IMG/VR virus record: IMGVR_UViG_3300044970_000539 | Location: 1-64,000 of that record | DNA length: 64,000 bases | Strand: one strand, 5' to 3' | From: a virus | In this document: in pieces, positions 4,127 to 57,889 of the stretch | Layout: every line of letters begins with the position of its first letter | Position numbering within the stretch: the first letter of the stretch is position 1 | The notes under the pieces: model-generated | Seen by the model: the letters and a program-made list of their open reading frames with translations, nothing else | What the model was told of the DNA's origin: nothing | Databases searched by the model: none | Position numbers and translations under genes: made by a program

Positions 4127-4831
4127 ATGGCAACAAGAATATATAAGTCAGACATTATTACATTAATAGATGGCGAACAAATAGAGATTTATCCCTTAAA
4201 AATTAAATATCTTAGGGAGTTTATGGAGGCATTCCATTTAATTAAAGATGCTAAAAATGATCTTGAATCAATATCCTATTTGTCAGAGTGTGCAAGAATT
4301 GCTATGAAACAATATAAGCCAGAAATTTCTAAAACACTTGAAGATCTTGAAGATAATGTTGACCTTCCAACAATTTATAAGATAATTAATATTGGCGGGG
4401 GTATAAGTGTGAACGGTGAGATAGACGAACCAGTAAAAGAACAAGCACTAAAGAGTGAGTCCTCTGGAAGCGGATGGGATGAGTTAGATTTAGCAAAATT
4501 AGAGTCTGAGATATTTTTGCTGGGTATATGGAAAGATTATCAAGAATTAGAACTAAACATGTCAATGCCAGAGTTAGTTACAACAATTGGATCTATTAGA
4601 GATTTAGATTATCAAGAAAAGAAATTCCTTGCAGCAATTCAAGGGGTAGATTTAGATGGTGCAACAAATCAAGATAAAGGTCAAAAGGAGTGGGAAGACA
4701 TGAAGGCTAGGGTATTTAGTAAAGGTCAAACCAGCGATAGCAATGACGTATTGTCTTTACAGGGTGCTACTGCACAAAAGGTAGGGTTTGGAATAGGCAT
4801 GGGTCTTGATTACGAAGACCTAACAAAATAG
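4127..4831 (+). CDS. Tail assembly chaperone, long (GT-like) form
   Basis: Between tail tube and TMP. The N-terminal ~95 aa are paralogous to 4874..5203, and there is a C-terminal extension. Confidence 0.7.
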   Translation: MATRIYKSDIITLIDGEQIEIYPLKIKYLREFMEAFHLIKDAKNDLESISYLSECARIAMKQYKPEISKTLEDLEDNVDLPTIYKIINIGGGISVNGEIDEPVKEQALKSESSGSGWDELDLAKLESEIFLLGIWKDYQELELNMSMPELVTTIGSIRDLDYQEKKFLAAIQGVDLDGATNQDKGQKEWEDMKARVFSKGQTSDSNDVLSLQGATAQKVGFGIGMGLDYEDLTK

Positions 4832-4873
4832 CCCTTTTATGCTATAATTGAGGTAACTTACTGAGAGGAAGTT

Positions 4874-5203
4874 ATGACTACAACAGTTCATGAAGAAAAA
4901 ATAATTACCCTGATTGATGGAACAAAGATCAAGGTAAGACCTCTCAAGATCTCACTTTTACGTAAATTTATGAAGAAGTTTGAGGGCTTGGGGGCAGTCC
5001 AAAATGATAACGATAAGTCTATGACACTTTTAATTGAGTGCGTGGCAATCGCTATGGAGCAGTATAAGCCAGAGTTGGGGGAAAGCATTGAGAAACTTGA
5101 GGATGTAATTGATCTTCCTACGGTTTATTCAATCATTGAGGCAGCATCTGGAATTAATCTTTCAGATACCGCTTTACTTGCTTTAGCACAAGAAGAACTA
5201 TAA
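4874..5203 (+). CDS. Tail assembly chaperone, short (G-like) form
   Basis: Directly before the TMP; shares IITLIDG..PLKI..LR.FM..IAM.QYKPE..LED..DLPT.Y with the upstream gene. Confidence 0.7.
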   Translation: MTTTVHEEKIITLIDGTKIKVRPLKISLLRKFMKKFEGLGAVQNDNDKSMTLLIECVAIAMEQYKPELGESIEKLEDVIDLPTVYSIIEAASGINLSDTALLALAQEEL

Positions 5204-5223: not shown

Positions 5224-8200
5224 ATGGCTGGAGATACAAATAGCAATATTTTTATAAATATTGATACCTCACAAGCAATGACGCAACTGCGTCTACTTGA
5301 GAAGGAACTCACAGCCCTTAACCGTTCCTTAATTGTTGGAACAAAGGCTGCAGCAGCAGCCCAAGCAAAATACGCACAATCTCTTCTACACAATGTAAAT
5401 GCCACTGGTCAGTGGACAGCATCAATGACAAGAATGAGCACTGCCTCTGAGCAGTTTGCTACAAACCTAGATAGACAAAGATTATCACTTAAAGAATACT
5501 TTAGATATGGTGCAGCATCTACCAAAACTTTTGGAAAGTTTTTTGGTCGTGAATTTGACACCATTGGAAAACTTGTAGACAAGCGTGTAAAGACTTTACA
5601 GCAACAGTATGTTCAATTAGGACGTGATGCTCAAGGCGCAATGAACGCCATGAAGTTTACTCCAAAGTCCCTGAACATGCAAAATTTAACTACCCAGTTA
5701 ATGATGGCAACACAAAAACAACAAATATTAAATAAACTTATTGATGATGGTTCAACAAAACTATTAAACTTTGGTAAGAATACTCAGTGGGCAGGCCGCC
5801 AACTTATGGTTGGTTTTACAATTCCACTTATGCTTTTTGGCGCTCAAGCAATTAAAACATTTAAGGAAATTGAAACACAAACAATTAGATTTAAAAAAGT
5901 TTATGGAGATATCTTTACAGACCAAGGAGCAACAAACGCTGCTTTAAAGAATATTCGTGATCTTGCTGATGAGTATACTAAGTATGGTCTTACAGTTGCT
6001 GACACAATTAAGATGGCTGCAGATGCTGCAGCAGCAGGTTTTTCTGGTAAGGGATTAGAAAACCTTGTAGAGCAAACAAATAAACTTGCAGTACTTGGTG
6101 GAGTTACACAAGAAAAGGCATTAGAAACAACAATTGCATTAAAGAACGCATTCCAGATAGATACTGGAGCAATGGCTGGAACAATTGATTTCCTTAACGC
6201 AGTTGAAAACCAAACTGTTGTAGCACTTGATGATTTAACAGAAGCAATTCCAAAGGTTGCTCCAGTTATTCAGCAACTTGGAGGAGATGTAAAAGATCTT
6301 GCATATTTTATGGCTGCAATGCAAGAAGGTGGAATTTCTGCAGCACAAGGTGCTAACGCCCTTAAGTCTGGCCTTGCATCTTTAATTAATCCAAGTAACG
6401 CTGCATCAAAGGCTGCAGCAGCCGTTGGAATTAATATCAAGGGAATTGTTGAAGCAAATGCTGGTAACTTAAGAAATACTGTAACTGGATTTGCAAAAGC
6501 ATTACAACCATTAACAGATCTAGAAAAAGCAAGAGTAATTGAAAAGGTTTTTGGTAAGTATCAGTTTGCTAGAATCTCTGCACTTTTAAATAACATAGGA
6601 AGAGAAGGAACACAGGCTGCTCGTGTACTTCAATTAACCAATGCATCTGTTGAAGAACTTGCAATCTTAAGTCAACGAGAATTAAAGGTTCAAGCCGATT
6701 CACCAATGAACAAATTAGCATCATCAGTAGAAAAATTTAAAGCATCTATTGCTCCAATTGGAGAATTATTTGCTAAGGTATTTACTCCAGTAATTGAGTT
6801 TATTGCAAGAATGGCAGAAAAATTTAATAACCTTCCAGATGGAATAAAGAAGGCTATTGGAATTATTACTGTTGTAGTTGGAGGCCTAGGACCTATATTC
6901 TTAATGACATTTGGTTTACTTGCAAATGCTGTTGCAAACTCAGTTAAGGGTGTTCAGATTCTTCGTAAAGGATATCAGCAACTTGCAGCGGGATCAACTG
7001 ATGCAGCATTAAAGACACAGTATTTATCACAAGAAGAATTAGAAAACATATCTATTAGCAATGCCCTTTACTCTAAGCATCAACAACTCTCTGCAGCATA
7101 TGCTCTAGAGGCATCTGCTCTAACATCTTTAACAAGTGTATACACCAAGGCCAACGCATCTATGGGAGCCTTTGCAGCAAGTAACCCAGGAATGTTTATG
7201 CCTAGAGGCGGAGTTCTACTTCCTAAGAAATTTGCGGGAGGAACAACATCTGTACCAGGACCAAAGGGAGCAGGAGACGTAGTTCCAGCAATGCTTTCTC
7301 CTGGAGAGTCTGTTATTCCAACAAAGCAAACACAAAAGTATGCAGGGTTTATTAATCAGATTATTCAAGATAAGGTTCCAGGTTTTATAACTGGAACTAC
7401 TGGCGTTGCTGTAACACGGGCTGCTGCAACACGGGCTGCATCAACAAGAGGTGCTGTTAGTTCATCCCTTGCTCCAGTCGTTGATATTTCTTCTGGACTT
7501 AGAGGAATATCATTTGCTACAGAAGGAAATAGAGTTAAAGTTTCTGTTGGAGGTAAATTCTTCTACATTCCTGCAGGTAAAAAAGATTATGTTCAAAGCA
7601 AACTTAAAGAAAATGAAGAATGGCTAAGGTCTAAAGGGCGAACAGATACCACAGAAGAAAATCTTCTTCATGCAATTATAAGAAAAAATCTTGGTGGACA
7701 AAATGTTACTAGTGTAGCCAAGTTAATAGCAGGAAACCTTCCTAAATTTCAAGCAGGAAGAAACCGTCGTGTCCCACAACAAGTTAAGTCTTTAAGAGCA
7801 AAATATCAAAATTCACCAATTTATAAAGAACTTGTTTCCACACATAAACAAGAAATTGAAGAGTTAAAGTTACTTGCAAACACTAAAGATAACCCATATG
7901 GAATAACACAAGCAGACCTTGATGCTGTTAAAAAAGTTCAAGCAGCAAGGGCTGAAAAGTTTGAATATACTCCAGCATTTAGTCATAGATTTACAGATAG
8001 ACAGGTAGATGAGTTACCAGGATTAACTCAATATAAAAGAAATGCCCCAAGCAATGTATTTGAAGAACAAGGATTTTTTAATACATTTTTTCAAAACATT
8101 TCAGGAACATCTCTTGGTGGAATGCACATATCAAAAAGAGCACAAGCAGAGGCTGCTCGTAGATTTATTTTAGATATACCAGCATCTCAAAGAACATCAG

Positions 8201-11200
8201 TTCAAAAAGCAGTTCACGCAACACTAGATAGAAGACTTGCTAGTGGCTACTATGAAAAGTTTGGTTCAAAAACAAATCAACTGTCATTGTTGCAAGATGC
8301 TGGCTTAAGCAATGAAAAAATAAAATCTTTCAAAAGATTTAGACCAAAAGATGAAGAACTTCCAGGATTTGCTGGTGGAGTAGTTTCACTTGGAATGCCA
8401 ATACCATTTAAGGTTATTGCAAAAAATAGAGCAGCGGCTCAACAGATAGATGCTCGTGTAAGATCAAGTAAGTTTAAAGATACTCCACCAACAAACTTTG
8501 GAGTAAGGTTAGAAGAATTTACAGGTCACAGTTTTCCAATCCCAGGCGTTGGAGGGGTTTACAGAAAACCAAATGGACAAGTTGTTGTTGTTAAGCCAGT
8601 TCTTAATGAAAAGGCAGCGTTAGCAGAACAAAGAGGAACAGTAATTACTAGAGGGGCGTTCCCAGAACTAGACGCTCCAGAACAAACAATTAGAACAATG
8701 GTTGATCCAACAGACTTAACTGGTAAGCGTAAATTTATTGTCCTTGAATCTCCATACAATCCAAAATTTGCAACTGGAGGAACTAAGTTCTCTAAGGAAG
8801 AATACTTTTCACAACTTCTTGCTTCAACAGTAAGAGGAGACAAAGACTTATCTCCTTCAAACGTGTTTGGACCAAACGTAGCAGATCAAGGTGCCTCTGG
8901 AGTATTCGGTTCGGCTTCAGGACAAAGAGAATTTAAATTCAACATGCCATCTCTAGAAGAGCAGGCAATGATCAATCTTCTTGGAGTCAAGGGTGGTGCT
9001 AGAAAAGCATTTGCTGAAAATACTGCTGATATAGCAAGATCTATGACACCACAGCAATATCAAGATGCAATGATTGCTGAGATTAATGCGACTATCCCAA
9101 GATTAGAAAAGACTATTGCTTCTCTTGGGTTAACAACAGGAGTTGAAAAAATTGTATATCAAAGAATGGTTGATAGACTTAAGGCTGGGTTAGGTGTTGA
9201 TTGGACTAAGTTACACGCAGTTCACTCTAAGGTAAAGGCTCCTCTTGAATTAGCAGAAGGCATTGTTTCAGTACCTGGTCCAAAGGGTGCTGGAGATATT
9301 CAACCTGCAATGCTTTCTCCAGGAGAGGCAGTAATTCCTGCAAAGCAATCTGAAAAGTATATGCCACTTATTCGTTCAATGATTGCTGATAATGTTCCTG
9401 GGTTTGCAGAGTCAAATGTTAGTTGGGATGGCTACCCAGCATCACTAAAAGAAGGTGGAAAGTATGCAGGACCAGTTACTCCTGTATATCCACCAGGATA
9501 TGATGCTTTCGGCAAAATACAAGAGCCTACTTCATCTGGAGGAAGAGTAAGAAATGCTGCTACTTCATTAATTACAGATAAAGGAATGAGGTCAATCACA
9601 AACTTTGCAACAGAAACAGCAAGGGCTGCAAGACAGTCAAGACTAGCATCCAACGCACTTGAAGGTGTAAAGAACGCTGGATCAAAAGTTAAAGCATCTT
9701 TTGTTTCTACTACAACAGCAGTAGACGCTGCAGCAGATAGTACAGTAAAAAATACTCAAGTTGCATCAACAATGACCAAAGAAGAGTTAAAAAATGCTCG
9801 TCAGTTAAAGCAGATGAACAACATGGGCAAGAACATGGGTATTGGAATGGCTGCCTCTATGCTTCCTATGATGGGTATGGCACAGGCTTCTACAAATCCC
9901 GAAGGGATGATGGCAAGAAACATGAGCACTCTAAGTGGAGTTGCCATGTTAGCAATGATTGCCCCAATGTTAAATACACCACTAAAACTTCTTGCAGGAG
10001 TTGCTTTAGGATACGCTGCTATATTAAAGATGCAGTCTGCACAAATTAAAAAGGCAATAATAGAAGGCAACAAACTTGCTGAGTCATTCTCTATGACAAC
10101 TAAAAAGTTAGAAGAGTTTGGATCAATAACTGGGGAAGTATCAATTACTCAAGAGTATGAGCAGAAAAGGTTGGGAAGAACAACTGTATCTGGTGTTGTA
10201 AACCAAGAGTTTGGAACAAGTTTTCTTTCATCTGAACCTGGTAAAAAGTTTAAAGATGATTTTACAAAACTTTCACAACAATATGAAACTGCTGTTGCGG
10301 GACAAATTGCTACTGCACAACTTGCATCTGCAGTAAATCAAGGAGTATTGTCTTATCTACAGGCAGAATCAATTATTACAAAGATGGCAAGAGATCTAAA
10401 GGATCCAACTTTAGAGTACCAGATGCAAGGTCAGTTAATGAAGATTCTTGGTCCAGATGGACAAGACCTTGCAAGAGATCCACTAAAGGTTCAACTTGAA
10501 TTAGTAAGGGCAAATCAAACAGGATTTAACACTGCAGCACAAAATTTCCAAGATGTAGGGTCTGCTCAGTTAGGATTACCAAGTAGGGGAGAAGTAGGAG
10601 GTCTTGCTGCTGGCGCTACCGCTGGTGGCTTAATCGCAGCAAAAGCATACAGTTCATCTTTGATGGCAGTTGCTGCTCAGGCTCAACTTGCAGGTACTGC
10701 AGTTACTGGAATGTCAGCAACACTGTCTGCAATTCCTGTAGGAAGACTTATAGCAGCAGGTGCTGCAATAGGAACTATTGCAACAAGAATATTTCAAAAA
10801 GGAAAAGAACAAGAAGCAATTGGAGCAGCAGCAGGACTGCTACAGGGAGTTGCAGCACAAAACTTTGCAGCAATTCAGCAATCTGCTGATGCCCTAAACT
10901 ATCAGTATGATGTTCAAATAGCAAACCTTTCTATTGAAAAAGATAGAACAAAAAACCTAGAACAAATTAAAAAACTTAATGAACAAATTGCAGAACTTGA
11001 GACTAAAAGAAGTATAGGGTTAGATAAACTTGCTCAATCTCAATTAGACACTATAAATTCATATATTGAAGTTGTAAGAAATTATAAGAACGATACAGAA
11101 GGGTTTGGTCAAAATCTTACAGAAGCACTTACTGAGCCATCTACTGTTCTTAATGCGCTGCCATTCTTTACTTCTAAAGATCAAAAGATGTATAACAAGG

Positions 11201-14200
11201 CTATGGATGCAGCAATTCTTGGAATGCAAGAGGCCTGGGACAACAGCATAGGTGCAAAACTTCTTGGAACACAACTAGAAGGTATGGACATCGAAGATGT
11301 AATTAGAATATCACTTCTAGTTGAATCAAAGACAGTATCTCCAGAACAAATGTTGCTTCTTAAAGATGTTGTTGAAAGAAATGGTAAAGATTTAGATCAA
11401 GTTATTAGGGTTACATTAGAAAATACTGATCCAGAGACTTTTGCAAGAATTTCAACACTTCTTGGAAGGTTTGAAACGCCTACAAAGCAGCAGGGATTCC
11501 AAAACCTAACAGATAGATTAATGGGTGATCCAGCAAAACTTAAGAACGTTCTTACAGCACTTGAAGAATATTCTAAGGCTCCAGATGAAGTTCCAGTTGT
11601 TATGGGAATGGAAATTGATCAAAGTGATATTGATGACCTTGCTAAATTTGGAAAAGAAATTGACGGAATTAAAAAGAGATTCCCTAAAGGCCAGTTTGAT
11701 ATTAAGTTGTTGCAAAAGTATCAAACAGAACTTGCTGGTGCTGGACTCCCATCTAATGCTACCTTAGATTATGTTATAAGCAATATTGATTATTTTATGG
11801 AGTTACCTGCAGAAAAAAGATTTGAAGCAATATTTGCTTTTAAAATGTTAAAAGATGCAGACTCAGTTAAGGCAGATATTGAAAGAACCTTGCAAATAGG
11901 ATTTATGAAAAAGCAAGCGGTAACAGGTGCAAACACAGTATTAAAAGCAACAGACCCGCTTTCTATTGCTGCTCAAAAACAATTTGAAGCATGGAGAAAA
12001 TCTACCGAAGGTGTAAAGGCTTATACTGCTGCTCTTAAGAAGATGGGTCTTGACTGGAAGGGTACTGGGCTAGACGAAGATGATGAAGATGGTGGTCCTA
12101 TAAGTGATCTAACTAAGGGACCAACAAAAGATATGTCTTGGCTTAATGATCTTGGCCAAAGACTTAAGTTAGTTAAGGAAAGTGCATTTAATGCACTTGA
12201 TCCTTTAGGATCTTTAAAAGAATTTCTTGATAAGGGCGGTAAGAAGTCAGTAAACCCAGGACTTGGCGAACAAGACGGAGCAATTAAAAGAATAGAAGAA
12301 GCAGCAAAAAAGTATAAGGATGCTGCTGGAAATATTGGTATAGCCATAGATAAAGACTTCATGGATGTTATTAGAGGTCTAGATGCAGAACAGTTTAAGT
12401 TATGGTCAGATACCTTGTTTAAGGTTGGTAAAGATAGTAAACAAATTTATGCGCTAACAGAAGTTTTTGCTACTATTAACGAAGGATTCCGTGTAGCAAC
12501 CATTGGTGGATTTATTCAAAATGTAAAAGATTCAAGCAAAGAAATTGAAAATCAAGTTAATGCTTATAATATTTTATCTAATGCTCGTGATGAAGACAAT
12601 AAACTAATGTATAACTCACTTGAAATTCAAAAGATATTACAGAACGCAACACTGGCTGCAAAGATTGCAGCACAGGGTGGACTGAAAGCCACCAAGCAAG
12701 AGCAAGAAGAGTTAAATAAAGAAATACAAAAAACTATTGATCTTAACTATGAATTAAGCACAATAAAACTTAATGACAACATTGCAGAAACAAAGATGCA
12801 GGTTGAAGCATTTAAGAGGCTTACTGCTGCTGGTGTAAAACATGAAGTTATTCTTGAAATATTAAAAGATAAAAATAACTCTTGGGCTATTGGCTCTGCT
12901 GATGCAACGGTAAATGTTAAAGATAAGTTCGGTGATTTAATAAATAAGACCAAGGAATATTCTGATATTCTTGAGTTAATTGCAAATCAAACAAAAACTT
13001 TTGAACAAAAAACACAAGATGCTATTGATGCAAATATTGCTGCACTTGACCTACAGGCTAAGACATTACAAAATGCTTTTGACATTAAAAACTTTGATCT
13101 TAAAGCAAAAATTACTTTAACAGAAAATGCTATTAAAGATATAAATGATGATATTCAAAAAGAACAAGATAAAATTGATAAAATTAATTTTGAACTTAAG
13201 TATGATTCAAAGATTGGTCAAAACCTTCTTGATGATATTCAGGAAAACATTAATGATGCCCAAAGAAAGATGGAGTTTGATTTTGATAGACCACTACAGG
13301 CATTGTCTGATAGATCAGCGGTATTATCAAATGACCTAACGTTAATTGATAAGGCTACAGAAGCAATCAATGAAAAGTACGATAAGCAAGAAGAAGCCTT
13401 ACGTACAATTTTTGAACTAAATCAAGATATTGCTGCACAAGAGCAAAGAAGAATTTCTCTTGCAGATGCGCTTTCTCAAGGTGATATCTCAGCAGCAGCA
13501 CAACTAGCAAATGAGATGCGCTCTACTGCAGCAGAAGCAGCAAGCCGTACATCTGGAGACTTTATCACAGCAGCAAGAAAGGCTGAAACAGAAGGCTTAG
13601 TATCTGCAAGTGGTATGACAAGAGCACAAATTGAGGCAGAACAGTTTAGAATTGGTCAGCAGTCTTATGCTCTTGAACTACAAAGAAAGACTGCTCAAGA
13701 AGCAATTCTTAAATTAGAAGATCAAGTTTATGATATAACAGAATTAAGAGAAGTAAAACTCTTAGCAATTAGAGATATTGAAACTGTAATTGATGGTATT
13801 AAGAAATACCAACTTGATAAGGCACAAGAAGAACTAGATCGAGATCAGAAAACACTTGAGGCTCAACAAAGAATACTTGATGCAAAACTTCTTGCAATTG
13901 ATAAAGAAAAACTAGGTTGGGAATCTATCCAGATTCAACTTAATGCTTATACACTTAAGTTAGATGAAATTAATAAGGGTCCACTTAAGAGCATGAAAGA
14001 TATAGTTGATTCAATTGCTGCAGCCCTTTCACAAATTAATAACGCAAAGTATTCACCAACAAGTGCATTTATTCCAGCAGCAACAGATACGACTACAGTT
14101 CTAACACCTGCACAGGTAACAGCAGCAACTGATGCAGCAAACGCAGCAGCAATCGCAGCAGATGCAGCAAACGCAGCAGCAGAAGCCACTGCAGCAGCGC

Positions 14201-14820
14201 AAGCAGCAGCCCAGGCAAAGGCTGACGCTGAAGCAGCAGCAACAAGTGCAGCACTAAAGAAAGCAATAGAAGATGCAAAGAAAGCAATCGCAGATGCAGC
14301 AAAGTCAGGAGACTCAGCATCTAAAGCCTACATTGCTCAACAAAAAGCAGAAGAAGAAAGACTTGCAGCCATTGCAAAACAAAATGCACAGTGGGTTGCG
14401 AAGGTAGCAGCAATGCAGGCAGCAGCAAACGCAGCAGCAGGCACAGCAGCATCTGCCTCTACCACAGTTTCTTCAGGTGGTGGAAGCGGTGGTGGTGGAA
14501 GATTTGGAATGATGGCACTTTCTTCTGGAGGAATGGTCAGACCTAAGTATTTTGCGGTAGGTGGAAAAGCAAGGGGTACAGACATTATTCCAGCAATGCT
14601 CACCCCTGGAGAATTTGTAATGAGTAAGTATGCCGTTGACTCATATGGTGTTGATAAAATGAAGGCTATCAATAGCGGATCATACGAAGGCGAGAAGGTG
14701 TATAATTATAATCTAAACGTCAATGTTAAGTCTGATGCAAATCCAGAGGATATTGCAAGAGTCGTTATGACACAAATTAGACAAGTTGACTCACAGAGAA
14801 TTAGGACACAGAGGGGCTAA
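5224..14820 (+). CDS. Tape measure protein with embedded cargo domains
   Basis: 3198 aa; TP901-type TMP core in the N-terminal ~600 aa; Ala/Gly-rich helices and coiled coils; PAML(S/T)PGE motif three times; position after the chaperones. Confidence 0.92.
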   Translation: MAGDTNSNIFINIDTSQAMTQLRLLEKELTALNRSLIVGTKAAAAAQAKYAQSLLHNVNATGQWTASMTRMSTASEQFATNLDRQRLSLKEYFRYGAASTKTFGKFFGREFDTIGKLVDKRVKTLQQQYVQLGRDAQGAMNAMKFTPKSLNMQNLTTQLMMATQKQQILNKLIDDGSTKLLNFGKNTQWAGRQLMVGFTIPLMLFGAQAIKTFKEIETQTIRFKKVYGDIFTDQGATNAALKNIRDLADEYTKYGLTVADTIKMAADAAAAGFSGKGLENLVEQTNKLAVLGGVTQEKALETTIALKNAFQIDTGAMAGTIDFLNAVENQTVVALDDLTEAIPKVAPVIQQLGGDVKDLAYFMAAMQEGGISAAQGANALKSGLASLINPSNAASKAAAAVGINIKGIVEANAGNLRNTVTGFAKALQPLTDLEKARVIEKVFGKYQFARISALLNNIGREGTQAARVLQLTNASVEELAILSQRELKVQADSPMNKLASSVEKFKASIAPIGELFAKVFTPVIEFIARMAEKFNNLPDGIKKAIGIITVVVGGLGPIFLMTFGLLANAVANSVKGVQILRKGYQQLAAGSTDAALKTQYLSQEELENISISNALYSKHQQLSAAYALEASALTSLTSVYTKANASMGAFAASNPGMFMPRGGVLLPKKFAGGTTSVPGPKGAGDVVPAMLSPGESVIPTKQTQKYAGFINQIIQDKVPGFITGTTGVAVTRAAATRAASTRGAVSSSLAPVVDISSGLRGISFATEGNRVKVSVGGKFFYIPAGKKDYVQSKLKENEEWLRSKGRTDTTEENLLHAIIRKNLGGQNVTSVAKLIAGNLPKFQAGRNRRVPQQVKSLRAKYQNSPIYKELVSTHKQEIEELKLLANTKDNPYGITQADLDAVKKVQAARAEKFEYTPAFSHRFTDRQVDELPGLTQYKRNAPSNVFEEQGFFNTFFQNISGTSLGGMHISKRAQAEAARRFILDIPASQRTSVQKAVHATLDRRLASGYYEKFGSKTNQLSLLQDAGLSNEKIKSFKRFRPKDEELPGFAGGVVSLGMPIPFKVIAKNRAAAQQIDARVRSSKFKDTPPTNFGVRLEEFTGHSFPIPGVGGVYRKPNGQVVVVKPVLNEKAALAEQRGTVITRGAFPELDAPEQTIRTMVDPTDLTGKRKFIVLESPYNPKFATGGTKFSKEEYFSQLLASTVRGDKDLSPSNVFGPNVADQGASGVFGSASGQREFKFNMPSLEEQAMINLLGVKGGARKAFAENTADIARSMTPQQYQDAMIAEINATIPRLEKTIASLGLTTGVEKIVYQRMVDRLKAGLGVDWTKLHAVHSKVKAPLELAEGIVSVPGPKGAGDIQPAMLSPGEAVIPAKQSEKYMPLIRSMIADNVPGFAESNVSWDGYPASLKEGGKYAGPVTPVYPPGYDAFGKIQEPTSSGGRVRNAATSLITDKGMRSITNFATETARAARQSRLASNALEGVKNAGSKVKASFVSTTTAVDAAADSTVKNTQVASTMTKEELKNARQLKQMNNMGKNMGIGMAASMLPMMGMAQASTNPEGMMARNMSTLSGVAMLAMIAPMLNTPLKLLAGVALGYAAILKMQSAQIKKAIIEGNKLAESFSMTTKKLEEFGSITGEVSITQEYEQKRLGRTTVSGVVNQEFGTSFLSSEPGKKFKDDFTKLSQQYETAVAGQIATAQLASAVNQGVLSYLQAESIITKMARDLKDPTLEYQMQGQLMKILGPDGQDLARDPLKVQLELVRANQTGFNTAAQNFQDVGSAQLGLPSRGEVGGLAAGATAGGLIAAKAYSSSLMAVAAQAQLAGTAVTGMSATLSAIPVGRLIAAGAAIGTIATRIFQKGKEQEAIGAAAGLLQGVAAQNFAAIQQSADALNYQYDVQIANLSIEKDRTKNLEQIKKLNEQIAELETKRSIGLDKLAQSQLDTINSYIEVVRNYKNDTEGFGQNLTEALTEPSTVLNALPFFTSKDQKMYNKAMDAAILGMQEAWDNSIGAKLLGTQLEGMDIEDVIRISLLVESKTVSPEQMLLLKDVVERNGKDLDQVIRVTLENTDPETFARISTLLGRFETPTKQQGFQNLTDRLMGDPAKLKNVLTALEEYSKAPDEVPVVMGMEIDQSDIDDLAKFGKEIDGIKKRFPKGQFDIKLLQKYQTELAGAGLPSNATLDYVISNIDYFMELPAEKRFEAIFAFKMLKDADSVKADIERTLQIGFMKKQAVTGANTVLKATDPLSIAAQKQFEAWRKSTEGVKAYTAALKKMGLDWKGTGLDEDDEDGGPISDLTKGPTKDMSWLNDLGQRLKLVKESAFNALDPLGSLKEFLDKGGKKSVNPGLGEQDGAIKRIEEAAKKYKDAAGNIGIAIDKDFMDVIRGLDAEQFKLWSDTLFKVGKDSKQIYALTEVFATINEGFRVATIGGFIQNVKDSSKEIENQVNAYNILSNARDEDNKLMYNSLEIQKILQNATLAAKIAAQGGLKATKQEQEELNKEIQKTIDLNYELSTIKLNDNIAETKMQVEAFKRLTAAGVKHEVILEILKDKNNSWAIGSADATVNVKDKFGDLINKTKEYSDILELIANQTKTFEQKTQDAIDANIAALDLQAKTLQNAFDIKNFDLKAKITLTENAIKDINDDIQKEQDKIDKINFELKYDSKIGQNLLDDIQENINDAQRKMEFDFDRPLQALSDRSAVLSNDLTLIDKATEAINEKYDKQEEALRTIFELNQDIAAQEQRRISLADALSQGDISAAAQLANEMRSTAAEAASRTSGDFITAARKAETEGLVSASGMTRAQIEAEQFRIGQQSYALELQRKTAQEAILKLEDQVYDITELREVKLLAIRDIETVIDGIKKYQLDKAQEELDRDQKTLEAQQRILDAKLLAIDKEKLGWESIQIQLNAYTLKLDEINKGPLKSMKDIVDSIAAALSQINNAKYSPTSAFIPAATDTTTVLTPAQVTAATDAANAAAIAADAANAAAEATAAAQAAAQAKADAEAAATSAALKKAIEDAKKAIADAAKSGDSASKAYIAQQKAEEERLAAIAKQNAQWVAKVAAMQAAANAAAGTAASASTTVSSGGGSGGGGRFGMMALSSGGMVRPKYFAVGGKARGTDIIPAMLTPGEFVMSKYAVDSYGVDKMKAINSGSYEGEKVYNYNLNVNVKSDANPEDIARVVMTQIRQVDSQRIRTQRG

Positions 14821-15456
14821 ATGGCTACAGCAGGGTATTTAACAGGTAGACGTAGGTATCAGCGCCCCCAGGCCCTGTTGTGGTCTGAGAACCCTGGCAC
14901 ACTGGTTAATGGGGTGTATCTACCAGATGGCTATGAAGTACAAGGTAACTTTGCAGAGTCTACAGATCCAGATCTAATTAATCAATTTCTCATTCTTTCA
15001 GACCATAATCGTGGGGAATTAAATTTTACACCAACAAGAATTGAACAAAGACAAAGAACCATTAATGGACGTATGCGTTCATATCATATAGCAGATAAAT
15101 TAACAATGTCTGTCTCTTGGAATAATCTACCATCAAGGTCATACTTTCAAGATGCAGGGTTTTTATCTACTGGCTTATCCCCTGACAAAAATACAACAGG
15201 TGAATTTACATCAGATGGTGGAGCAGGGGGAGTAGAACTTCTTGATTGGTATGAAAACCACACAGGACCTTTTTGGATGTTCCTAGCATACGATAAGTAC
15301 TCAAACTTTGGCAAGGATGATGCAGACTATGGACACCTTGCACAATACAATCAAATAATGCAGGTTTATATAACAGACTTTAACTACTCCGTTGTAAAGC
15401 GTGGTGGGTCAAACCACGATCTCTGGAATATTTCGGTATCACTGGAAGAGGTCTAA
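14821..15456 (+). CDS. Minor tail protein (distal tail/Dit-like)
   Basis: First gene after the TMP; RT.NG..R motif and terminal WNISVSLEEV. Confidence 0.6.
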   Translation: MATAGYLTGRRRYQRPQALLWSENPGTLVNGVYLPDGYEVQGNFAESTDPDLINQFLILSDHNRGELNFTPTRIEQRQRTINGRMRSYHIADKLTMSVSWNNLPSRSYFQDAGFLSTGLSPDKNTTGEFTSDGGAGGVELLDWYENHTGPFWMFLAYDKYSNFGKDDADYGHLAQYNQIMQVYITDFNYSVVKRGGSNHDLWNISVSLEEV

Positions 15457-18400
15457 ATGTTTGTTAGTGAGACATTAAAGACACACCTAGAAACATCTTC
15501 AACAGTACACCTACAGTCATTAGTTTTGGCTGAGTGGAACATGAATATGCCAGATAACATATTTAAACTTGGTAACTATAGATATAGACCTACTGGATCA
15601 GATGTTCAATACCGAACACTTCCTTTAACATTTGATAGCCTAGATGTAGGAAATTATTATACAGGTGCAACAGATGCCGATGTTGTTGTAGATGGAGGGT
15701 TTGATAATTCTGGGGTTCCACAATTATTTACTTCAACTAAAGAAAAAATGAAAATGATATATTCTTTAGAAGATTGTGTAAAGCCTTTTAGACCAAGATC
15801 TGGAATTAATAAAGCATCATATTTTACTAATAGGTATTTTGCAAACTCTGGTGTATCTATTGCAGAAAGACCCAGATACTACATGGCATCAAGATATGAT
15901 CAGTTTAGATATTGGTCATCATTTAGAACAGAAGGTAGCATTGAAAGAGGAATTGCTAAAAATGTTTCTAATGGATTAAATTATATTGATGATGCGGTTC
16001 CATTTGTAGTCTATAAAGAAAAGGTTCCAGCAAACAGACTTGTTGTAAAAATGCAAACAAATGTTGGAACGGCAAACTTAGGAAACTTTACTACACCATC
16101 TGGCATTTTGCCTGATCCACTATATGGCGCAACAAATAAAACAACCCCCGTTAAATGGAAGATCCAATACTTAAATGAAGATAACTGGGTTGACGCTTAT
16201 TCTTTTGATGAAAACTCTGTTCGTGATGATCAATCTGCAATTATTCCAGAAGATGGATATGTTGAATTAGAGTATGGAATAAAAATTCCAGATGCCTATA
16301 AAGAATCATACACCTTCGTTGAAAAGATAGCATCTATAACATTGTTGCCAGAGCAGTCTTTTAATGGAGATGCATATCTTGTAGTTGAAAATGCAAATAC
16401 TCGTGGAACGCTTTATATATGGAATGGCGCAGATGAAGACTACGATTCTTTTATTCCTGAATATGGATGGATGCTAGGCACTGGAGTTTTAAATAGTTCA
16501 ACAAAACTTGTTACAGACCTAACCAATCCAGAACTATTTACTAATGATGCACAAAATCAAACTACATATAGAGAGTTTGCCTATATTCGTGGTATAAGAG
16601 TTGTAGCAGAAACAATGAACAAGTTTGATTCAACTTTTGATTTAATTGAAATGTCTCCTAGACTAGTCGTAAATATATCGGATAAGGTTGTTGATTTTAA
16701 TATTAAAAAGATCTTATCTGATATAGGAACTACATCTCTTCCAGTTGGACAGTTGCTTGCTTCTACTGGAACACTATCATTGTTTGATGATGATCAGGCA
16801 TTTAATGAAAACAATACGTCTAGCATAGTCGCTGACTATATTAGAAAGAATATTAAGTTTGTTTTTTATGAATCAATTTTAAATGTTGATGGTGACGAAT
16901 ACTCTGTTCCAATTAAAACGTTATACTCAGAAGGATTTCCTCAAGCAGATGTTACTGCAGCAAAACTATCAATAGAGTTAAGAGACTTTTATTTCTTCTT
17001 AGAATCAATGCCAGCCCCAAGATTACTTACAACACAGACATCATTAAGTTATGCAATCTCAATGCTTCTTGATTATATTGGGTTTAGCAACTATACATTT
17101 AGGCGTGTAGCAGATGAAGCAGATCCTATCATCCCATTTTTCTTTGTTGCTCCAGATCAAAATGTTGCAGAGGTTTTAAATCAACTAGCAGTGTCAACTC
17201 AGAGTGCAATGTTTTTTGATGAATATAATAACTTTGTCGTAATGAGCAAAGACTACTTAATGCCTACAGCAGAACAAAGAGAAACAAACTTTGTCCTATC
17301 TGGATCAAACAATCAAACCGACTCAGGAGTTATTAAAAACTCTAGTTCTGGAAACCTTCCTAACATTATTGCCATTGCATCACAAGATAAGAAGATTTAT
17401 AATGATGGAAAGATTAACTACACAACTAGATATATTCAAAGATCTTACGGATCAATTAGACAATCAACAATGATTGATAAAGAAAAAACTTGGATATATA
17501 AGCCATCTCTTTTATGGGAAGTTGCGGGAACAGAAAATACAAAAACGATAAACGAACTTGCTTCAAAGCAGGGTAGTTATGTATTAGGGGCAATGCCATT
17601 AAACTCAGACCTAGTAGGAACGGCACCAGTTGTAGTAGGAAATGTTCTTACAAATAACATAATTGATCTTGGAGAAAATGTTTATTGGCTAACAAGATAT
17701 AACGGATACCTATATTCTAACGGAGAGGTTATTCGTTATGATGCCTCAGAGTTTGATATTACTGGAACTGGCAAGGTTTGGATTAGTAGCAATCAAGAAT
17801 ACCAAAAGTATTTTTCATCAATACCCTTTAACGGTAAGATATATCCAACTGGACTTGTAAGAATTTATGCAACACCAAACTATGAAACCGTAGATGGAAT
17901 AACAAGATTACAAAACGGTGCCGTGGTTGATCATGGACGTGGACAGTTTGGAACTCAGATAGTCTCACACTCTGCTGGAATAAATAGTTACTGGACAAAT
18001 AATAATAATGTTCGTGGACTAAATATGCAATCTCAATATCTATTTAGCACACAACTAGACGCTAACCTTGCAGCAACACTTCCATCTACAACAGTTGCTG
18101 CTGCAGGAGTAAATAATCCAGTTGCAAGGCAGTCAACAAGAAATAGCATTATAAAGAATTTTATGGCTACAAACTATTTAAGTGAAACAGAAGTAAATAA
18201 TCTACAATCAACGCAAACTGGAACAATTCAGTCATCTGCTTTAGTCTTTAATGGCCCATCATTTAAAACAACTGAAAAACCTTTGAACTTTGTATCTTAC
18301 GTATACAAGGGTTTGGATAATGCCTATAAGCATTTTGGAACTAGAATGAGAATTATTGGTAAGATTGAAAATAATACAAGCAGAACACAGTCTCCAAATG

Positions 18401-19779
18401 GAAGTATTACATACTATCAATTATCTGGAAACCAGCCAGATCAAAATATAAATATCGGTGGAGGCTCTGGCGGACTAGCATTTTTGCTAAATCCAGAAAC
18501 AAATAATGGTTATTATTTTGAAATTGTTGCATTAACAGAAGACAACATAAACTCTTACCTTAAGGTTGATGAAAATAATAATGCACAATTCTCAGTAAAC
18601 AATGTTGTGTTCTATAAAATTAAAAAAGATTCTTCAAACTCAAATGCTATACCAGTAAAACTTTGGGGAGGCCTATCAAAAATTATTGTTGATGACGGAA
18701 AGTTTACTGGGCAGCAAAGACTTGCTGGAGAAGAAAATTCAACGGTATACGATTTATCAGTAGAGTATATTGATATTGGAAATACAAGAAGGTTTTATCT
18801 ATACATAAACAATCAATTAATAAAGGTTGTAGACGATACAGACCCTCTACCAACATACAATAATATGGCATTGTTTGTTCGTGGTTCTTCAAAGTGTATG
18901 TTTGAGAATATATATGCTCTATCTAAAAACTATAGTCAAAATACAGTATTTACAGTTAATGAGACTTTGGGTCAGGTGTTTGGAGACAACGAGATTGATG
19001 TTACAGAATCTTTTAGAAAATACGCTATGAGTGGAGTTATTCAATCAACTTACCTATCTGGAATTAGTGCACAGCAACCACCAAAATATAACATTTATTT
19101 TGAAGAGTTTGGATCTATTATGCGTGAGTGTGCATACTTTGACATTAAGTATGACCGTGCATACCCTGCACTTTATGCAAAACTTTCTCCTACCTTTAAT
19201 AATATAAAGGGATATACCACATCTGGGTTTTATGCAGACTCATATGGTGCAGAGTTTTTAATATTTAACTCAACAGATAAAGCATTAAACTTAGATGAAA
19301 CAACTGGAAACTTTTTAAGAATTCAGGGAATTACATTTACACAAGATACAACCCATGAACTAACTGTAGATGAGTTCTTTAAAAAGCGTGGTAATTTGTC
19401 AGATCCAGAGTTAGTTGGAAGCACACTAACATACTCTCCATTAGTTGAAAAATCAAGGTATGATGAAATAAAGTTAAGTAGATTGACCTACGGTAAAAAT
19501 GAATTTAGTATTGATAGCCCATATATACAGACACAAGATGATGCAGATGCTATGATGAATTGGATTATTAATAAGTTAATGGTACCTAAGAAGTCTGTTG
19601 GAATGAATATATTTAGTATTCCAACCTTACAACTTGGAGACATTGTAACTATAAACTATAAAGATTCTTCTGGCTTAGACCTAGTATCTAAAGATTCGTC
19701 TAGGTTTGTAGTTTATAATATAGAATATCAAAGATCAGAAAGTGGTCCAAACATGACAATTTATTTGAGTGAGGTATAA
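15457..19779 (+). CDS. Large minor tail/baseplate hub (Tal-like) protein
   Basis: 1440 aa after the Dit-like gene; MFFDEYN and LQLGDIVTI hub motifs. Confidence 0.7.
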   Translation: MFVSETLKTHLETSSTVHLQSLVLAEWNMNMPDNIFKLGNYRYRPTGSDVQYRTLPLTFDSLDVGNYYTGATDADVVVDGGFDNSGVPQLFTSTKEKMKMIYSLEDCVKPFRPRSGINKASYFTNRYFANSGVSIAERPRYYMASRYDQFRYWSSFRTEGSIERGIAKNVSNGLNYIDDAVPFVVYKEKVPANRLVVKMQTNVGTANLGNFTTPSGILPDPLYGATNKTTPVKWKIQYLNEDNWVDAYSFDENSVRDDQSAIIPEDGYVELEYGIKIPDAYKESYTFVEKIASITLLPEQSFNGDAYLVVENANTRGTLYIWNGADEDYDSFIPEYGWMLGTGVLNSSTKLVTDLTNPELFTNDAQNQTTYREFAYIRGIRVVAETMNKFDSTFDLIEMSPRLVVNISDKVVDFNIKKILSDIGTTSLPVGQLLASTGTLSLFDDDQAFNENNTSSIVADYIRKNIKFVFYESILNVDGDEYSVPIKTLYSEGFPQADVTAAKLSIELRDFYFFLESMPAPRLLTTQTSLSYAISMLLDYIGFSNYTFRRVADEADPIIPFFFVAPDQNVAEVLNQLAVSTQSAMFFDEYNNFVVMSKDYLMPTAEQRETNFVLSGSNNQTDSGVIKNSSSGNLPNIIAIASQDKKIYNDGKINYTTRYIQRSYGSIRQSTMIDKEKTWIYKPSLLWEVAGTENTKTINELASKQGSYVLGAMPLNSDLVGTAPVVVGNVLTNNIIDLGENVYWLTRYNGYLYSNGEVIRYDASEFDITGTGKVWISSNQEYQKYFSSIPFNGKIYPTGLVRIYATPNYETVDGITRLQNGAVVDHGRGQFGTQIVSHSAGINSYWTNNNNVRGLNMQSQYLFSTQLDANLAATLPSTTVAAAGVNNPVARQSTRNSIIKNFMATNYLSETEVNNLQSTQTGTIQSSALVFNGPSFKTTEKPLNFVSYVYKGLDNAYKHFGTRMRIIGKIENNTSRTQSPNGSITYYQLSGNQPDQNINIGGGSGGLAFLLNPETNNGYYFEIVALTEDNINSYLKVDENNNAQFSVNNVVFYKIKKDSSNSNAIPVKLWGGLSKIIVDDGKFTGQQRLAGEENSTVYDLSVEYIDIGNTRRFYLYINNQLIKVVDDTDPLPTYNNMALFVRGSSKCMFENIYALSKNYSQNTVFTVNETLGQVFGDNEIDVTESFRKYAMSGVIQSTYLSGISAQQPPKYNIYFEEFGSIMRECAYFDIKYDRAYPALYAKLSPTFNNIKGYTTSGFYADSYGAEFLIFNSTDKALNLDETTGNFLRIQGITFTQDTTHELTVDEFFKKRGNLSDPELVGSTLTYSPLVEKSRYDEIKLSRLTYGKNEFSIDSPYIQTQDDADAMMNWIINKLMVPKKSVGMNIFSIPTLQLGDIVTINYKDSSGLDLVSKDSSRFVVYNIEYQRSESGPNMTIYLSEV

Positions 19780-27083: not shown

Positions 27084-30000
27084 ATGAACTACGTAGGCTT
27101 ACACGTACATACCCATTACTCACTATTTGACGGCGTAGCAACTCCAAAAGAGTATGTTGACCGTGCTAGTGCTTTAGGCATGCCAGCAATCGCAATCACA
27201 GACCATGGTACGTTGTCTGGTCATCGTGAGATGTATCGCATGGCTAAAGAAAAGGGTATTAAGCCGATTCTAGGTCTAGAAGGATATATGTGTGCAGACA
27301 TATCTGATACACGAGATAAGTCTGAAAGAGAAGGTCAGCAAGATCTTGTCTATAATCACATTATCCTTCTAGCCAAGAATAAAATTGGTTTGGAAAACCT
27401 AAACAAGATTAGCGAATTATCTTGGACAGATGGATTTTTTAAGAAGCCAAGGTTTGATTTTGATATTCTACAAAAGTATCGTGAAGGAATTATTGTAACT
27501 TCTGCCTGTCCAAGTAGTGTTATTGTTAAGGCATTAGAAGAAGAAGAGTTTGCTCTTGCTAAAAAATATATTCAGTGGTTTAAAGATAACTTTGGCAGCG
27601 ATTACTACATTGAGGTAATGCCACACAATGAAGCACACATAAACAAATACCTAATAGAACTAGCAGACGAGTTTGGCATTAAGGTTGTTGTGACACCAGA
27701 CTGTCACCACGTTGACCAATCACAAAGAGAAGTACAAGAGTTTAAATTGTTGCTTAACACACATGGTAAAGTAAACAAAGAAGCAACATATGAAAAGTCA
27801 AAAAAGCAACCAGACATGATGAAGCGACTTGACTATCTGTATGGAGAAGATCGCCAGATAACATTTAATAAGTTTGATATCCACCTTTTGTCTTATGAGG
27901 AGATGAAGGCAGCGATGGAATTGCAGGGTATTGATAGACCTGACATCTATGCAAACACACTCCTACTAGCAGACACAGTAGAAGACTATGAAATACAAGA
28001 TGGACTAAACCTACTACCAGTTCAATACAAGAGTCCAGATAAGGAACTTGCTAAGATTGCTTTAGAAGGTTTACAACTAAAAGGTTTGTCAGAGAATAAA
28101 GAGTATCTAGATAGACTTGATGAAGAACTTAAAATTATTAAAGACAAGAAGTTTGCTCCATATTTCCTTGTAGTTCAAAGCATGATTGCTTGGGCTAAGA
28201 AGGAAGGTATCATGGTAGGTCCAGGTCGTGGATCTGCTGCTGGCTCATTGGTTTGTTACTCACTTGGAATTACAGATATTGATCCAATTAAGTACGGACT
28301 GCTGTTCTTCCGATTTATTAATCCAGAACGTAATGATTTTCCTGATATTGATACAGATATTCAAGATAACAGACGTGATGAAGTTAAAGATTATCTTGTT
28401 AGACAATATAGACACGTTGCATCTATTGCAACATTCCTTGAATTTAAAGACAAGGGTGTTGTGCGAGATGTAGCCAGAGTTTTAGATATTCCTTTAACAG
28501 ATGTAAACAAAGTTTTAAAGTTGGTAGACACTTGGGACGAATATTGTTCATCAAGGACTACGGCTTGGTTTAGAGAAAAGTATCCAGAGGTGGAGGTTTA
28601 TGGTGAACAATTACGTGGTCGTATTCGTGGTACTGGTATACACGCTGCTGGTGTGGTCACTAGCAAAGATCCGATTTTTAGGTTTGCTCCAATGGAAACG
28701 AGATCTAGTCCTGGGTCTGATGAACGTATACCTGTGGTTGGTGTCGACATGGAAGAGGCTGAACGCATCGGCCTTATAAAAATTGATGCACTTGGTCTTA
28801 AGACATTGAGTGTTATTCAAGATGCAGTTGCTATGATTAAAGAAAATCATTACAAAGATATTGATTTAGATTCTCTTGATCTTGCAGATGCAAAAGTTTA
28901 TGAAATGCTTTCAGATGGATATACAAAGGGAGTATTTCAGTGTGAAGCAACCCCTTACACAAATCTTTTAGTTAAGATGGGTGTAAAGAATTTTAATGAA
29001 CTTGCTGCATCAAATGCACTTGTTCGCCCTGGTGCTATGAATACTATTGGTAAAGACTACATTGCCCGTAAACACGGAAAGCAAAATGTATCTTATACGC
29101 ACCAAATTATGAAAGAGTTTACGGAGGATACCTATGGCTGTGTTCTTTACCAAGAGCAAGTTATGCAAGCATGCGTACACCTTGGACAAATGTCCATGTC
29201 GGAAGCAGATAAAGTTAGAAAAATCATTGGAAAGAAAAAGGATGCTAAAGAGTTTGACGTATACAAAGAGCAATTTGTCAAAGGTGCTTCTGCCTATATT
29301 GCTCCCAATCAGGCTCTTGATTTATGGCATGACTTTGAAGCACATGCGGGGTACTCATTCAACAAGTCTCATGCGGTTGCTTACTCTACGCTCTCGTATT
29401 GGACGGCGTGGTTAAAATACTACTACCCTCTTGAGTTTATGTTTGCATTACTTAAGAATGAAAAAGACAAAGATGGTCGCACAGAATATCTAATTGAAGC
29501 AAAGCGTATGGGAATCCCTATTAAGTTGCCACACATTAATGATTCTGACTTTGACTTTAAGATTGAAGGTAAGGGAATTAGATTTGGATTGACTGGAATT
29601 AAGTTTATTTCAACTAACATTGCTGAAAAATATGTTGCTGCTAGACCTTTTAGTTCCTATAAAGAACTTGAAGAGTTTACTTTTACAAAAGGCAATGGAG
29701 TAAATAGTCGTGCACTTAATGCTTTACGTGTTATTGGCGCAGCAACATTTCCAGATCAGCCAAGAAATGATAGTGAGATTAAAGAAAATCTATACGAATA
29801 TTTAAACCTTCCAGAGTTTAATATTACAATACCATCTCACTATTATGCATTTATTCAGGATGTTGACTCATTTGAAGAAAAGGGGTCTTTTATTCTTATG
29901 GGAATGGTCAAGGCAATTAAAAGAGGAACAGGATGGTCACGAATTGAAATTTTGGACAAGACTGGCAGTGTTGGTATATTTGATGAAGAGTCTACGACTA

Positions 30001-44733: not shown

Positions 44734-44806
44734 TGGTCTGTAACTCAGATGGTAGAGTGCCGAACTGTTAATTCGGATGTCGCAGGATCGATACCTGCCA
44801 GACCAG
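44734..44806 (+). tRNA. tRNA-Asn(GTT)
   Basis: Acceptor TGGTCTG/CAGACCA; anticodon arm CCGAA-ctGTTaa-TTCGG. Confidence 0.88.
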
Positions 44807-44811
44807 CAAAA

Positions 44812-44885
44812 GCGAGTGTTGCATAATGGTAGTGCTTCTGCCTTCCAAGCAGATGGTGCCAGTTCAATTCTGGTCACTCGCTCCA
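44812..44885 (+). tRNA. tRNA-Gly(TCC)
   Basis: GCGAGTG/CACTCGC; TCTGC-ctTCCaa-GCAGA; encoded CCA. Confidence 0.92.
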
Positions 44886-44886
44886 G

Positions 44887-44958
44887 GGCCCTATCTTCTA
44901 GTGGTTAGGATACCAGGCTTTCATCTTGGTGAGCAGAGTTCAATTCTCTGTAGGGCTA
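44887..44958 (+). tRNA. tRNA-Glu(TTC)
   Basis: GGCCCTA/TAGGGCT; CCAGG-ctTTCat-CTTGG; GTTCAATTC T-loop. Confidence 0.9.
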
Positions 44959-44969
44959 CAAAAGTTTGA

Positions 44970-57784: not shown

Positions 57785-57813
57785 AAATACCCCTTTGTTT
57801 TCATCTATTATAG

Positions 57814-57885: not shown

Positions 57886-57889
57886 TTAG

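Follow-up and report, generated by a model that had tools for sequence, protein, structure and literature searches.

The 64-kb window analysed here (the whole stretch of 64,000 nucleotides) is the first part of the complete 105,135-bp virus record IMGVR_UViG_3300044970_000539, which has direct terminal repeats. It contains the gene for a tape measure protein (TMP) of 3,198 amino acids, and residues 1040 to 1342 of this protein, approximately, have a protein-kinase-like fold, which we take as established from a structural model. The explanation that we favour, with a probability of about 0.55, is that this region is an active atypical kinase of a new family, delivered by the virion to act before phage gene expression. 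One part of this explanation, that the domain is an active phosphotransferase, we consider highly probable. The protein, the domain and its motifs are located as follows.

5224..14820, + strand: TMP, 3,198 amino acids in one uninterrupted frame (open reading frame; Pfam, NCBIfam and PHROG matches)
8341..9273, + strand: kinase-fold domain as modelled, residues 1040-1350 (AlphaFold2 model, structural matches, homologues)
8362-9249, + strand: conserved core of the domain, residues ~1047-1342 (block conserved among homologues)
8524..8562, + strand: Gly-rich loop GHSFPIPGVGGVY, residues 1101-1113, between beta-1 and beta-2 (conservation, model)
8593..8595, + strand: K1124, the beta-3 lysine (VVVVK, residues 1120-1124; VKP), on a strand spanning residues 1120-1126
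8626..8628, + strand: E1135, the helix-C glutamate (AALAEQR, residues 1131-1137), on a helix spanning residues 1129-1145
8833..8862, + strand: catalytic loop RGDKDLSPSN, residues 1204-1213, directly after helix E (conservation)
8884..8892, + strand: D1221-x-G1223 (ADQG, residues 1220-1223), equivalent of the DFG metal-binding motif

The protein had been called a TMP in a preliminary description made from the sequence alone, and this identity was borne out. Residues 247-444 match PF10145 (Pfam, E = 3e-27), residues 200-557 match TIGR01760 (NCBIfam, E = 3e-31), and the protein matches eleven PHROG tape measure families (best E = 4e-86). With this PF10145/TIGR01760 core, and with its gene lying between chaperone-like and distal tail genes, it belongs to the TP901-type TMPs. 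Outside the kinase-like domain the protein is a long helical remainder, as judged from sequence only.

Conservation of the domain was assessed in 212 aligned sequences, comprising the query and 211 homologous domains from two large protein searches; they are 32-94% identical to the query (median 52%). The search probe covered 396 residues (TMP residues 997-1392). The block conserved among homologues corresponds to probe residues 50-343, or TMP residues ~1046-1339, in agreement with the limits first proposed (residues 1047-1342, nucleotides 8362-9249). In the Gly-rich loop, G1101, S1103 and G1111 are present in all 212 sequences, and G1108 and G1110 in 91-93%. K1124 is invariant (212/212) and E1135 is found in 210 of the 212. 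Within the catalytic loop, L1209 and N1213 are invariant (both 212/212), D1208 is present in 211 sequences and D1206 in 209, and R1204 is 99% conserved. The metal-binding motif, with D1221 in 212/212 and G1223 in 209/212, reads D-Q-G in the query and D-V-G in most homologues. With K1124, E1135, D1208, N1213 and D1221 conserved at 99-100% across 212 domains, the K/E/D/N/D motif set lies far beyond chance. All the motifs named in the preliminary description were recovered at the residues it gave, and its K...E...DxxxxN...DxG set is in the right order. By analogy, K1124 and E1135 would hold the phosphates of ATP, D1208 would serve as the catalytic base, and N1213 and D1221 would bind Mg2+.

Other positions are invariant in the family as well and give it a signature of its own, among them D1161-P1162, S1176, A1231-S-G1233 and an N-L-L-G-x-K-G-G-A stretch around residues 1251-1259. 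Pairwise ratios of non-synonymous to synonymous substitution rates (dN/dS) for the domain against seven relatives were 0.23-0.34, and the domain is under purifying selection.

The structure was modelled with AlphaFold2 from an alignment (A2) that comprised 48 non-redundant domains with 43-95% identity to the query. The mean predicted local distance difference test score (pLDDT) was 89.3 and the predicted template modelling score 0.85, and 237 of 311 residues scored above 90. A model of residues 997-1392 built from the single sequence reached a pLDDT of 36 and was discarded in favour of the alignment-based one. The model begins with a helix (residues 1062-1080), followed by beta-1, the Gly-rich loop and beta-2. 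K1124 lies on beta-3 and E1135 on a long helix C, after which come beta-4, beta-5, which ends in L-E-S-P, and the hinge. A short helix then precedes helix E (residues 1191-1204), which runs directly into RGDKDLSPSN; a tight hairpin, D1221-Q-G and five helices, forming a helical C-lobe, complete the domain. In the predicted structure the elements follow the canonical order of a protein-kinase-like fold, with a five-stranded N-lobe, helix C, hinge, and helical C-lobe with catalytic loop. The motifs of this fold (Gly-rich loop, Lys, Glu, D-x4-N and DxG) occur in order and are conserved.

The model was compared with 48,161 PDB representatives using VIA-align. The top 50 matches were all kinase-like enzymes, with Z scores of 6.0-11.8 over model residues ~45-300; Z scores of 7-8 are common in this method even for unmatched models. 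The best match was CotH (5jda; Z 11.8, 216 residues aligned, root mean square deviation (rmsd) 3.9), about 1-2 Z units above the next families. These were CtkA (Z 9.8, and 10.6 for chain 3akk_B), phosphatidylinositol 4-kinases PI4KII-beta (10.1) and PI4KII-alpha (9.8), and MavQ and LepB (both 9.8), followed by Fam20C (9.2), ATM (8.9), HipA (8.0-8.9) and actin-fragmin kinase (8.2). Rio, Bud32, WaaP (6.6) and MPH (6.9) gave Z scores of 6-7. Because the top Z score is above 7-8, 190-220 of the ~300 residues are aligned, and the matches belong to a single superfamily, the fold is taken as established; the model defines the nearest kinase family only loosely.

Foldseek searches of the PDB placed CtkA first (probability 0.97-0.98, E = 3e-3) in a list consisting nearly entirely of kinases, with nothing below E = 1e-3. 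The preliminary description had proposed a globular, kinase-fold domain at this place and named structure prediction with Foldseek as a check. The AlphaFold2 model, the kinase-like enzymes that fill the VIA-align top 50 and the Foldseek matches, with CtkA first (probability 0.97), all uphold it. In the ESM Atlas the best score was 0.89, below the trusted range, and the named neighbours HipA_2, LepB_N and PI3_PI4_kinase (scores 0.85-0.86) are leads only. Searches of BFVD detected kinase-like folds within phage portal, MuF and ADP-ribosyltransferase fusions (probability 1.00, E = 3e-5 to 1e-3, TM 0.3-0.5). These predicted structures suggest that kinases ride on several kinds of virion protein, in keeping with the virion-borne kinases predicted among polyvalent proteins (PMC5512222); the kinase-like domains of these fusions differ from the TMP domain and sit on head proteins. 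The BFVD entries (A0A6J5S481, A0A6B9L6W7, A0A6J5PWC9_2 and A0A6J5N2Y3_2) are portal, ADP-ribosyltransferase (Mycobacterium phage Onyinye) and head-morphogenesis fusions.

Relation to known kinase families

The kinase-like domain gave no match in Pfam, PHROG or NCBIfam, and none in the PDB by phmmer or by profile. HipA_C (PF07804), PI3_PI4_kinase (PF00454) and Pkinase (PF00069) had no Pfam match in the domain, and CotH (PF08757) had none at E ≤ 5 in the 48 family members or at E ≤ 10 in the whole phage genome. Alignment A2 was also compared by hhalign with self-built alignments of 14 CotH, 13 HipA_C (A4) and 12 Pkinase (A5) domains from actinobacterial genomes, A5 leaving out one locus (L134 of genome G003); no conclusion depends on G003 or on genome G020. 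The probability was 0.3% for the CotH domains and 0.2% for the HipA_C domains, neither of them significant, and nothing was found with the Pkinase domains. In the HipA_C comparison only helix E and the catalytic loop were paired, with D1208 and N1213 placed on the D and N of HipA; this register is sensible, and the score is not evidence.

The signature residues of these families were looked for individually. The invariant His of the HipA D-x-H-x-K-N motif, found in 13/13 HipA_C domains, is Ser1210 in the TMP domain, which lies inside a TMP among chaperone-like and tail genes and not in a toxin-antitoxin setting. Where PI3K and PI4K enzymes have G-D-R-H-x-x-N and DFG, the domain has R-G-D-K-D-L-S-P-S-N and D-Q-G. 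The His-Arg of HRD and the APE motif of Pkinase members are missing, although the D-L-x-x-x-N loop most resembles the D-(L/I)-K-P-x-N of eukaryotic-type kinases. On sequence grounds the domain is a new family within the kinase-like fold and not a member of HipA, PI3K/PI4K, CotH or Pkinase.

The label 'HipA/PI3K-like', under which the domain was first described, is therefore only partly apt. Both groups do occur in the structural comparison, at Z 8-10, yet they score below CotH (11.8) and CtkA (10.6), the D-x-H-x-K-N and DRH marks of HipA and the PI3/4-kinases are absent, and there is no Pfam or profile link to either.

Four groups of known enzymes may be set beside the domain. CotH, an atypical Ser/Thr kinase of the Bacillus spore coat (5jd9/5jda; PF08757), aligns over 216-218 residues with an rmsd of 3.9-4.0. 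It has a bilobal kinase-like fold with catalytic and metal-binding Asp residues, and acts on structural proteins outside normal signalling (PMC7821199). It differs in being a free protein and not part of a TMP, and at 6-7% identity the closeness is one of fold only and not of membership. CtkA (Helicobacter pylori JHP940; 3akj/3akk/3akl) aligns over 191-205 residues with 13-14% identity. As a secreted atypical Ser/Thr kinase of ~290 amino acids, exported to act in another cell, it resembles the domain in size and in proposed role; it lacks a sequence-level match, however, and is a bacterial effector on eukaryotic cells that is not phage-borne. The PI3K/PI4K-type lipid kinases (PI4KII alpha and beta, Vps34, and Legionella LepB and MavQ) align over 184-221 residues with Z scores of 9-10.1, and LepB and MavQ are delivered effectors. 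Their loop is G-D-R-H-x-x-N in place of the domain's G-D-K-D-L-x-x-x-N, and the TMP domain has no helical solenoid or other accessory domain. Unlike the HipA/HipT toxin kinases, it has neither the HipA N-terminal domain nor a HipB-type partner.

The cargo bay and the distribution of the domain

Self-similarity within the TMP revealed a 58-residue cassette with the motif P-A-M-L-S/T-P-G-E, two copies of which form the borders of a region that we call the cargo bay. The cassettes and the parts of the TMP around them are listed below.

7213..7386, + strand: cassette copy 1, residues 664-721, with PAMLSPGE; upstream border of the cargo bay (self-similarity)
9232..9405, + strand: cassette copy 2, residues 1337-1394; downstream border of the cargo bay (self-similarity)
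14512..14646, + strand: cassette copy 3, residues 3097-3141, near the TMP C-terminus (19/45 residues identical to copy 1)
7396..8343, + strand: middle module, residues 725-1040 (316 residues), first cargo unit, between cassette 1 and the kinase
6853..6945, + strand: transmembrane-like hydrophobic segment, residues 544-574, upstream of the cargo (Kyte-Doolittle)
9841..10023, + strand: Met-rich hydrophobic region, residues ~1540-1600, downstream of the cargo (residues 1573-1591 scored)

Copies 1 and 2 are identical at 36 of 58 positions, with a local score of 187 compared with 29.5 +/- 5.9 for shuffled sequences. The cassette had no match in Pfam or the PDB, the C-terminal cassette region giving only chance matches against the PDB; it may mark where recombination or processing takes place, or may serve in docking. 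The middle module is carried by 55 of 276 collected relatives and had no match in Pfam, NCBIfam, the PDB or the ESM Atlas. The upstream hydrophobic segment consists of 31 residues without charge, with a Kyte-Doolittle mean of up to 2.16 over 19 residues. For the Met-rich region, the window mean of 1.54 covers residues 1573-1591, the wider span having been read by eye from the sequence. A further hydrophobic region lies downstream of the cargo at residues ~1810-1850.

The arrangement was examined in 197 long homologues. The kinase starts at approximately residue 500-800 in 85 of these, at 1000-1200 in 65 and at 1200-1400 in 31. In 51% the cassette motif precedes the kinase at a distance of no more than 80 residues, and in 37% it follows the kinase at up to 60 residues; these percentages come from a simple pattern and are probably undercounts. 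Eight relatives (P0255-P0258, P0261, P0263, P0265 and P0266) have N-terminal 720 residues that are 50% identical to those of the TMP, and both cassettes, but carry 300-780 unrelated residues in between. No Pfam family scored above cut-off in the alternative cargo of the six related TMPs that were scanned. The framing by cassettes, the shifting start positions and the relatives with other cargo in the same bay therefore indicate that the kinase is one of several exchangeable inserts in the cargo bay of the TMP.

A HMMER search of 1.84 billion cluster representatives gave 440 matches at E < 1e-3, 152 of them below 1e-30; the best 150 of the 440 are almost all TMP-like proteins of 2,000-4,400 amino acids. 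A word-based search gave 723 matches, nearly all with PF10145 and named as TP901-family TMPs. The domain thus occurs essentially only within TMPs. Nineteen short homologues were also found, all on contigs of 0.8-7.5 kb; these are probably fragments, and speak neither for nor against free forms. A search for prophages and hosts in ~185,600 species genomes yielded only two loci, both in metagenome-assembled genomes (MAGs) of Actinobacteriota. One Acidimicrobiaceae MAG (G002) holds two giant TMP frames of 2,913 and 2,917 amino acids, each with a kinase domain, on separate contigs (L093 and L094, on C43 and C65); these may be binned phage contigs or prophages.

Proposed role and alternative explanations

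TMPs are commonly viewed as rulers and channel formers. To our knowledge, the enzymes known within them are wall-degrading domains and one tested RNA polymerase, that of Thermus phage P23-45. In this phage the N-terminal part of the TMP, gp96, functions as a virion RNA polymerase responsible for transcribing pre-early genes, and its proposed site of action is the TMP pore during DNA entry (PMC10770324). As is proposed for the kinase-like domain, this enzyme acts in the cytoplasm, and it is located in the head-proximal part of a giant TMP. It differs in being a two-barrel RNA polymerase at the very N-terminus that is not framed by cassettes, and it has been tested experimentally, whereas the lake-phage kinase is known from sequence and a model. 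From general TMP biology and this precedent we infer that the kinase would be present in the virion, would arrive in the cytoplasm and would act before phage gene expression.

The proposed pathway would run as follows. The kinase module lies between hydrophobic segments, the cargo bay being in the third of the TMP nearest the head, and it would be kept in the virion in a non-native form, the state in which TMPs are believed to be stored (PMC10770324). The TMP would exit the tail before the DNA and insert into the envelope of the host, which would be a monoderm and is probably a freshwater actinobacterium. Where the entry channel opens to the cytoplasm, or close by, the kinase would then refold, with ATP at hand, and phosphorylate a host protein or a membrane lipid ahead of any phage gene expression. 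The predicted fold leaves the class of substrate undecided, protein and lipid kinases matching about equally.

Delivery of kinases by phages has been proposed before, for polyvalent proteins (Iyer et al. 2017), whose kinase domains are predicted to enter with the phage DNA (PMC5512222). In those domains the whole C-lobe is missing, and an insert separates the conserved phosphotransfer His and Asp, both of which are kept (PMC5512222). They are carried by head proteins, the lake-phage kinase by a TMP. Together with the T7 protein kinase gp0.7 they resemble the proposed role, being phage kinases that are thought or known to modify host proteins early. The T7 enzyme is expressed after entry and not carried in. 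The literature search found no published description of a kinase in a tape measure protein. Compared with the published literature, the combination of a new sequence family of known fold, a location inside a TMP, for which enzymes are already known, and a likely effector role appears to be undescribed.

If the proposal is correct, a signalling or modifying enzyme joins what the virion brings into the cell before gene expression. The kinase fold would also gain a new sequence family, and the active-site residues of the domain offer clear mutants for a direct test. The phages concerned number in the hundreds and are uncultured; their probable hosts are freshwater actinobacteria, a group to which some of the most abundant lake bacteria belong. 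The framed cargo bay points to a mechanism by which long-tailed phages in general may exchange the effectors that they inject. In an extended form of the proposal, lake-phage TMPs would be delivery vehicles in which cassettes frame swappable effectors, the kinase phosphorylating a host membrane lipid or a protein related to defence or entry within seconds of adsorption. Recombination at the cassettes would swap the modules, with the kinase in hundreds of phages and other folds elsewhere, and the kinase would refold at the cytoplasmic mouth of the TMP channel. It would then be an enzyme for takeover or anti-defence that the virion carries in and that acts before expression, a class so far undescribed among tail proteins. 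We put this extended form forward tentatively and consider it less likely than not.

Several points weigh against delivery of an active kinase by the virion. It is established for siphophage tails that a folded domain of 300 residues is too large for the tail tube and cannot sit as such in its lumen; the domain would need to be stored unfolded or removed. If the cassettes are processing sites, the module might be excised while the virion is being assembled or earlier. A head-proximal domain would leave the tail last, and may lie in a part that does not cross the membrane. Kinases usually have 18-23 residues between the catalytic-loop Asp and the metal-binding Asp. D1208 and D1221 are 13 residues apart, a spacing that may make the geometry of the active site unusual; the corresponding distance in CotH, from catalytic D228 to D251, is 23 residues (PMC7821199). 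Kinase folds can support other chemistry, such as AMPylation in SelO and glutamylation in SidJ (PMC6858067). Comparison of sequences gave no link to any of the kinases tested, and tblastn did not find the domain in 50,697 GenBank phage records, so that no cultured phage there carries it.

The main competing explanation, which we regard as unlikely, is that the kinase is active late, in the producing cell, as part of newly made TMP. Its targets there would be, for example, its own TMP, proteins of the tail, chaperones or proteins of the host, and cleavage at the cassettes during tail building may leave the virion free of kinase. The catalytic residues and the purifying selection fit an active kinase anywhere, ATP is certain to be available in the producing cell, and a folded domain is too large for the tail tube. 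The module is, moreover, exactly bounded by cassettes and another cassette marks the C-terminus of the TMP; processing of the TMP C-terminus occurs in lambda, among other phages. A late role nevertheless makes it hard to explain why hundreds of phages fuse the kinase to their TMP, at positions that vary, and do not encode it as a free gene. No stand-alone form was found in the searches, the short homologues, on contigs below 7.6 kb, having the appearance of fragments. The TMP-fused RNA polymerase of P23-45 acts after delivery (PMC10770324).

The two remaining explanations concern what the domain does rather than when. It could be a kinase fold with other chemistry or a non-protein substrate, either a lipid or sugar kinase that modifies the membrane or wall precursors and so helps the TMP channel to form, or a nucleotidyl or other transferase of the SelO or SidJ kind; this we think rather improbable as a separate explanation, and it overlaps with the favoured one, which leaves the substrate open. 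The lipid kinases PI4KII, MavQ, LepB and Vps34 match with Z scores of 9-10, level with the protein kinases, and small-molecule kinases match too (MPH, Z 6.9; WaaP, Z 6.6). The module lies between hydrophobic TMP segments, and actinobacteria make phosphatidylinositol lipids. For zeta-toxin-like kinases that occur as fusions with injected phage proteins, a role in weakening the wall has been proposed (PMC5512222). On the other side, CotH, the best match, is a protein kinase, as are CtkA, Fam20C and HipA; the invariant D1208-x4-N1213 and DxG form the classical phosphotransfer set, and Z scores of ~10 at 7-14% identity cannot tell substrate classes apart. A pseudokinase or structural module without turnover, serving as an ATP-binding switch or as a spacer for TMP folding, measuring or docking, would fit the unusually short distance from catalytic loop to DxG. 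It would also fit the tolerance of TMPs for many inserts, relatives holding unrelated cargo at the same place. Pseudokinases, however, typically lose at least one of K, D, N and D. Here all four, and the Gly-rich loop, are kept at 99-100% in 212 sequences that reach down to 32% identity, which makes a domain without catalysis very improbable.

Host and tail gene neighbourhood

The host was considered from the following genes, and those around the TMP gene are listed with them.

51326-51499, + strand: WhiB-family gene (PF02467, 45.9 bits, above cut-off)
27084-30356, + strand: DnaE-type DNA polymerase III alpha, 1,090 amino acids, 53-55% identical to Streptomyces-phage homologues
4127-4831 and 4874-5203, + strand: two adjacent genes in the place of tail chaperones, both matching phrog_10504
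14821-15456, + strand: gene of 211 amino acids adjoining the TMP gene downstream (position)
15457..19779, + strand: large minor tail protein of 1,440 amino acids, second gene after the TMP (phrog_10359, E = 4e-59)

WhiB is a marker of actinobacteria and their phages. The relatives of the DnaE-type polymerase are found in Streptomyces phages of ~120-134 kb (BillNye, Wakanda and others), at ~54% identity despite the phage's G+C content of ~36%. DNA of the phage is present in lake water metagenomes from many studies. Taken together, the WhiB gene, the polymerase, the lake metagenomes, the G+C content and the matches in Actinobacteriota MAGs suggest that the host is a low-G+C freshwater actinobacterium.

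The neighbours of the TMP gene fit a siphophage tail module. By position, the two genes at 4127-5203 would be tail assembly chaperones, and they may form a duplicated or frameshift-type chaperone pair; the gene at 4127-4831 has an additional, C-terminal phrog_10474 part. A gene for an Ig-domain protein also lies upstream of the TMP gene. Elsewhere in the window there are two clusters of three tRNA genes, one for Asn, Gly and Glu at 44734-44959 (+ strand) and one for Arg(tct), Ile(tat) and Met at 57813-58117 (- strand).

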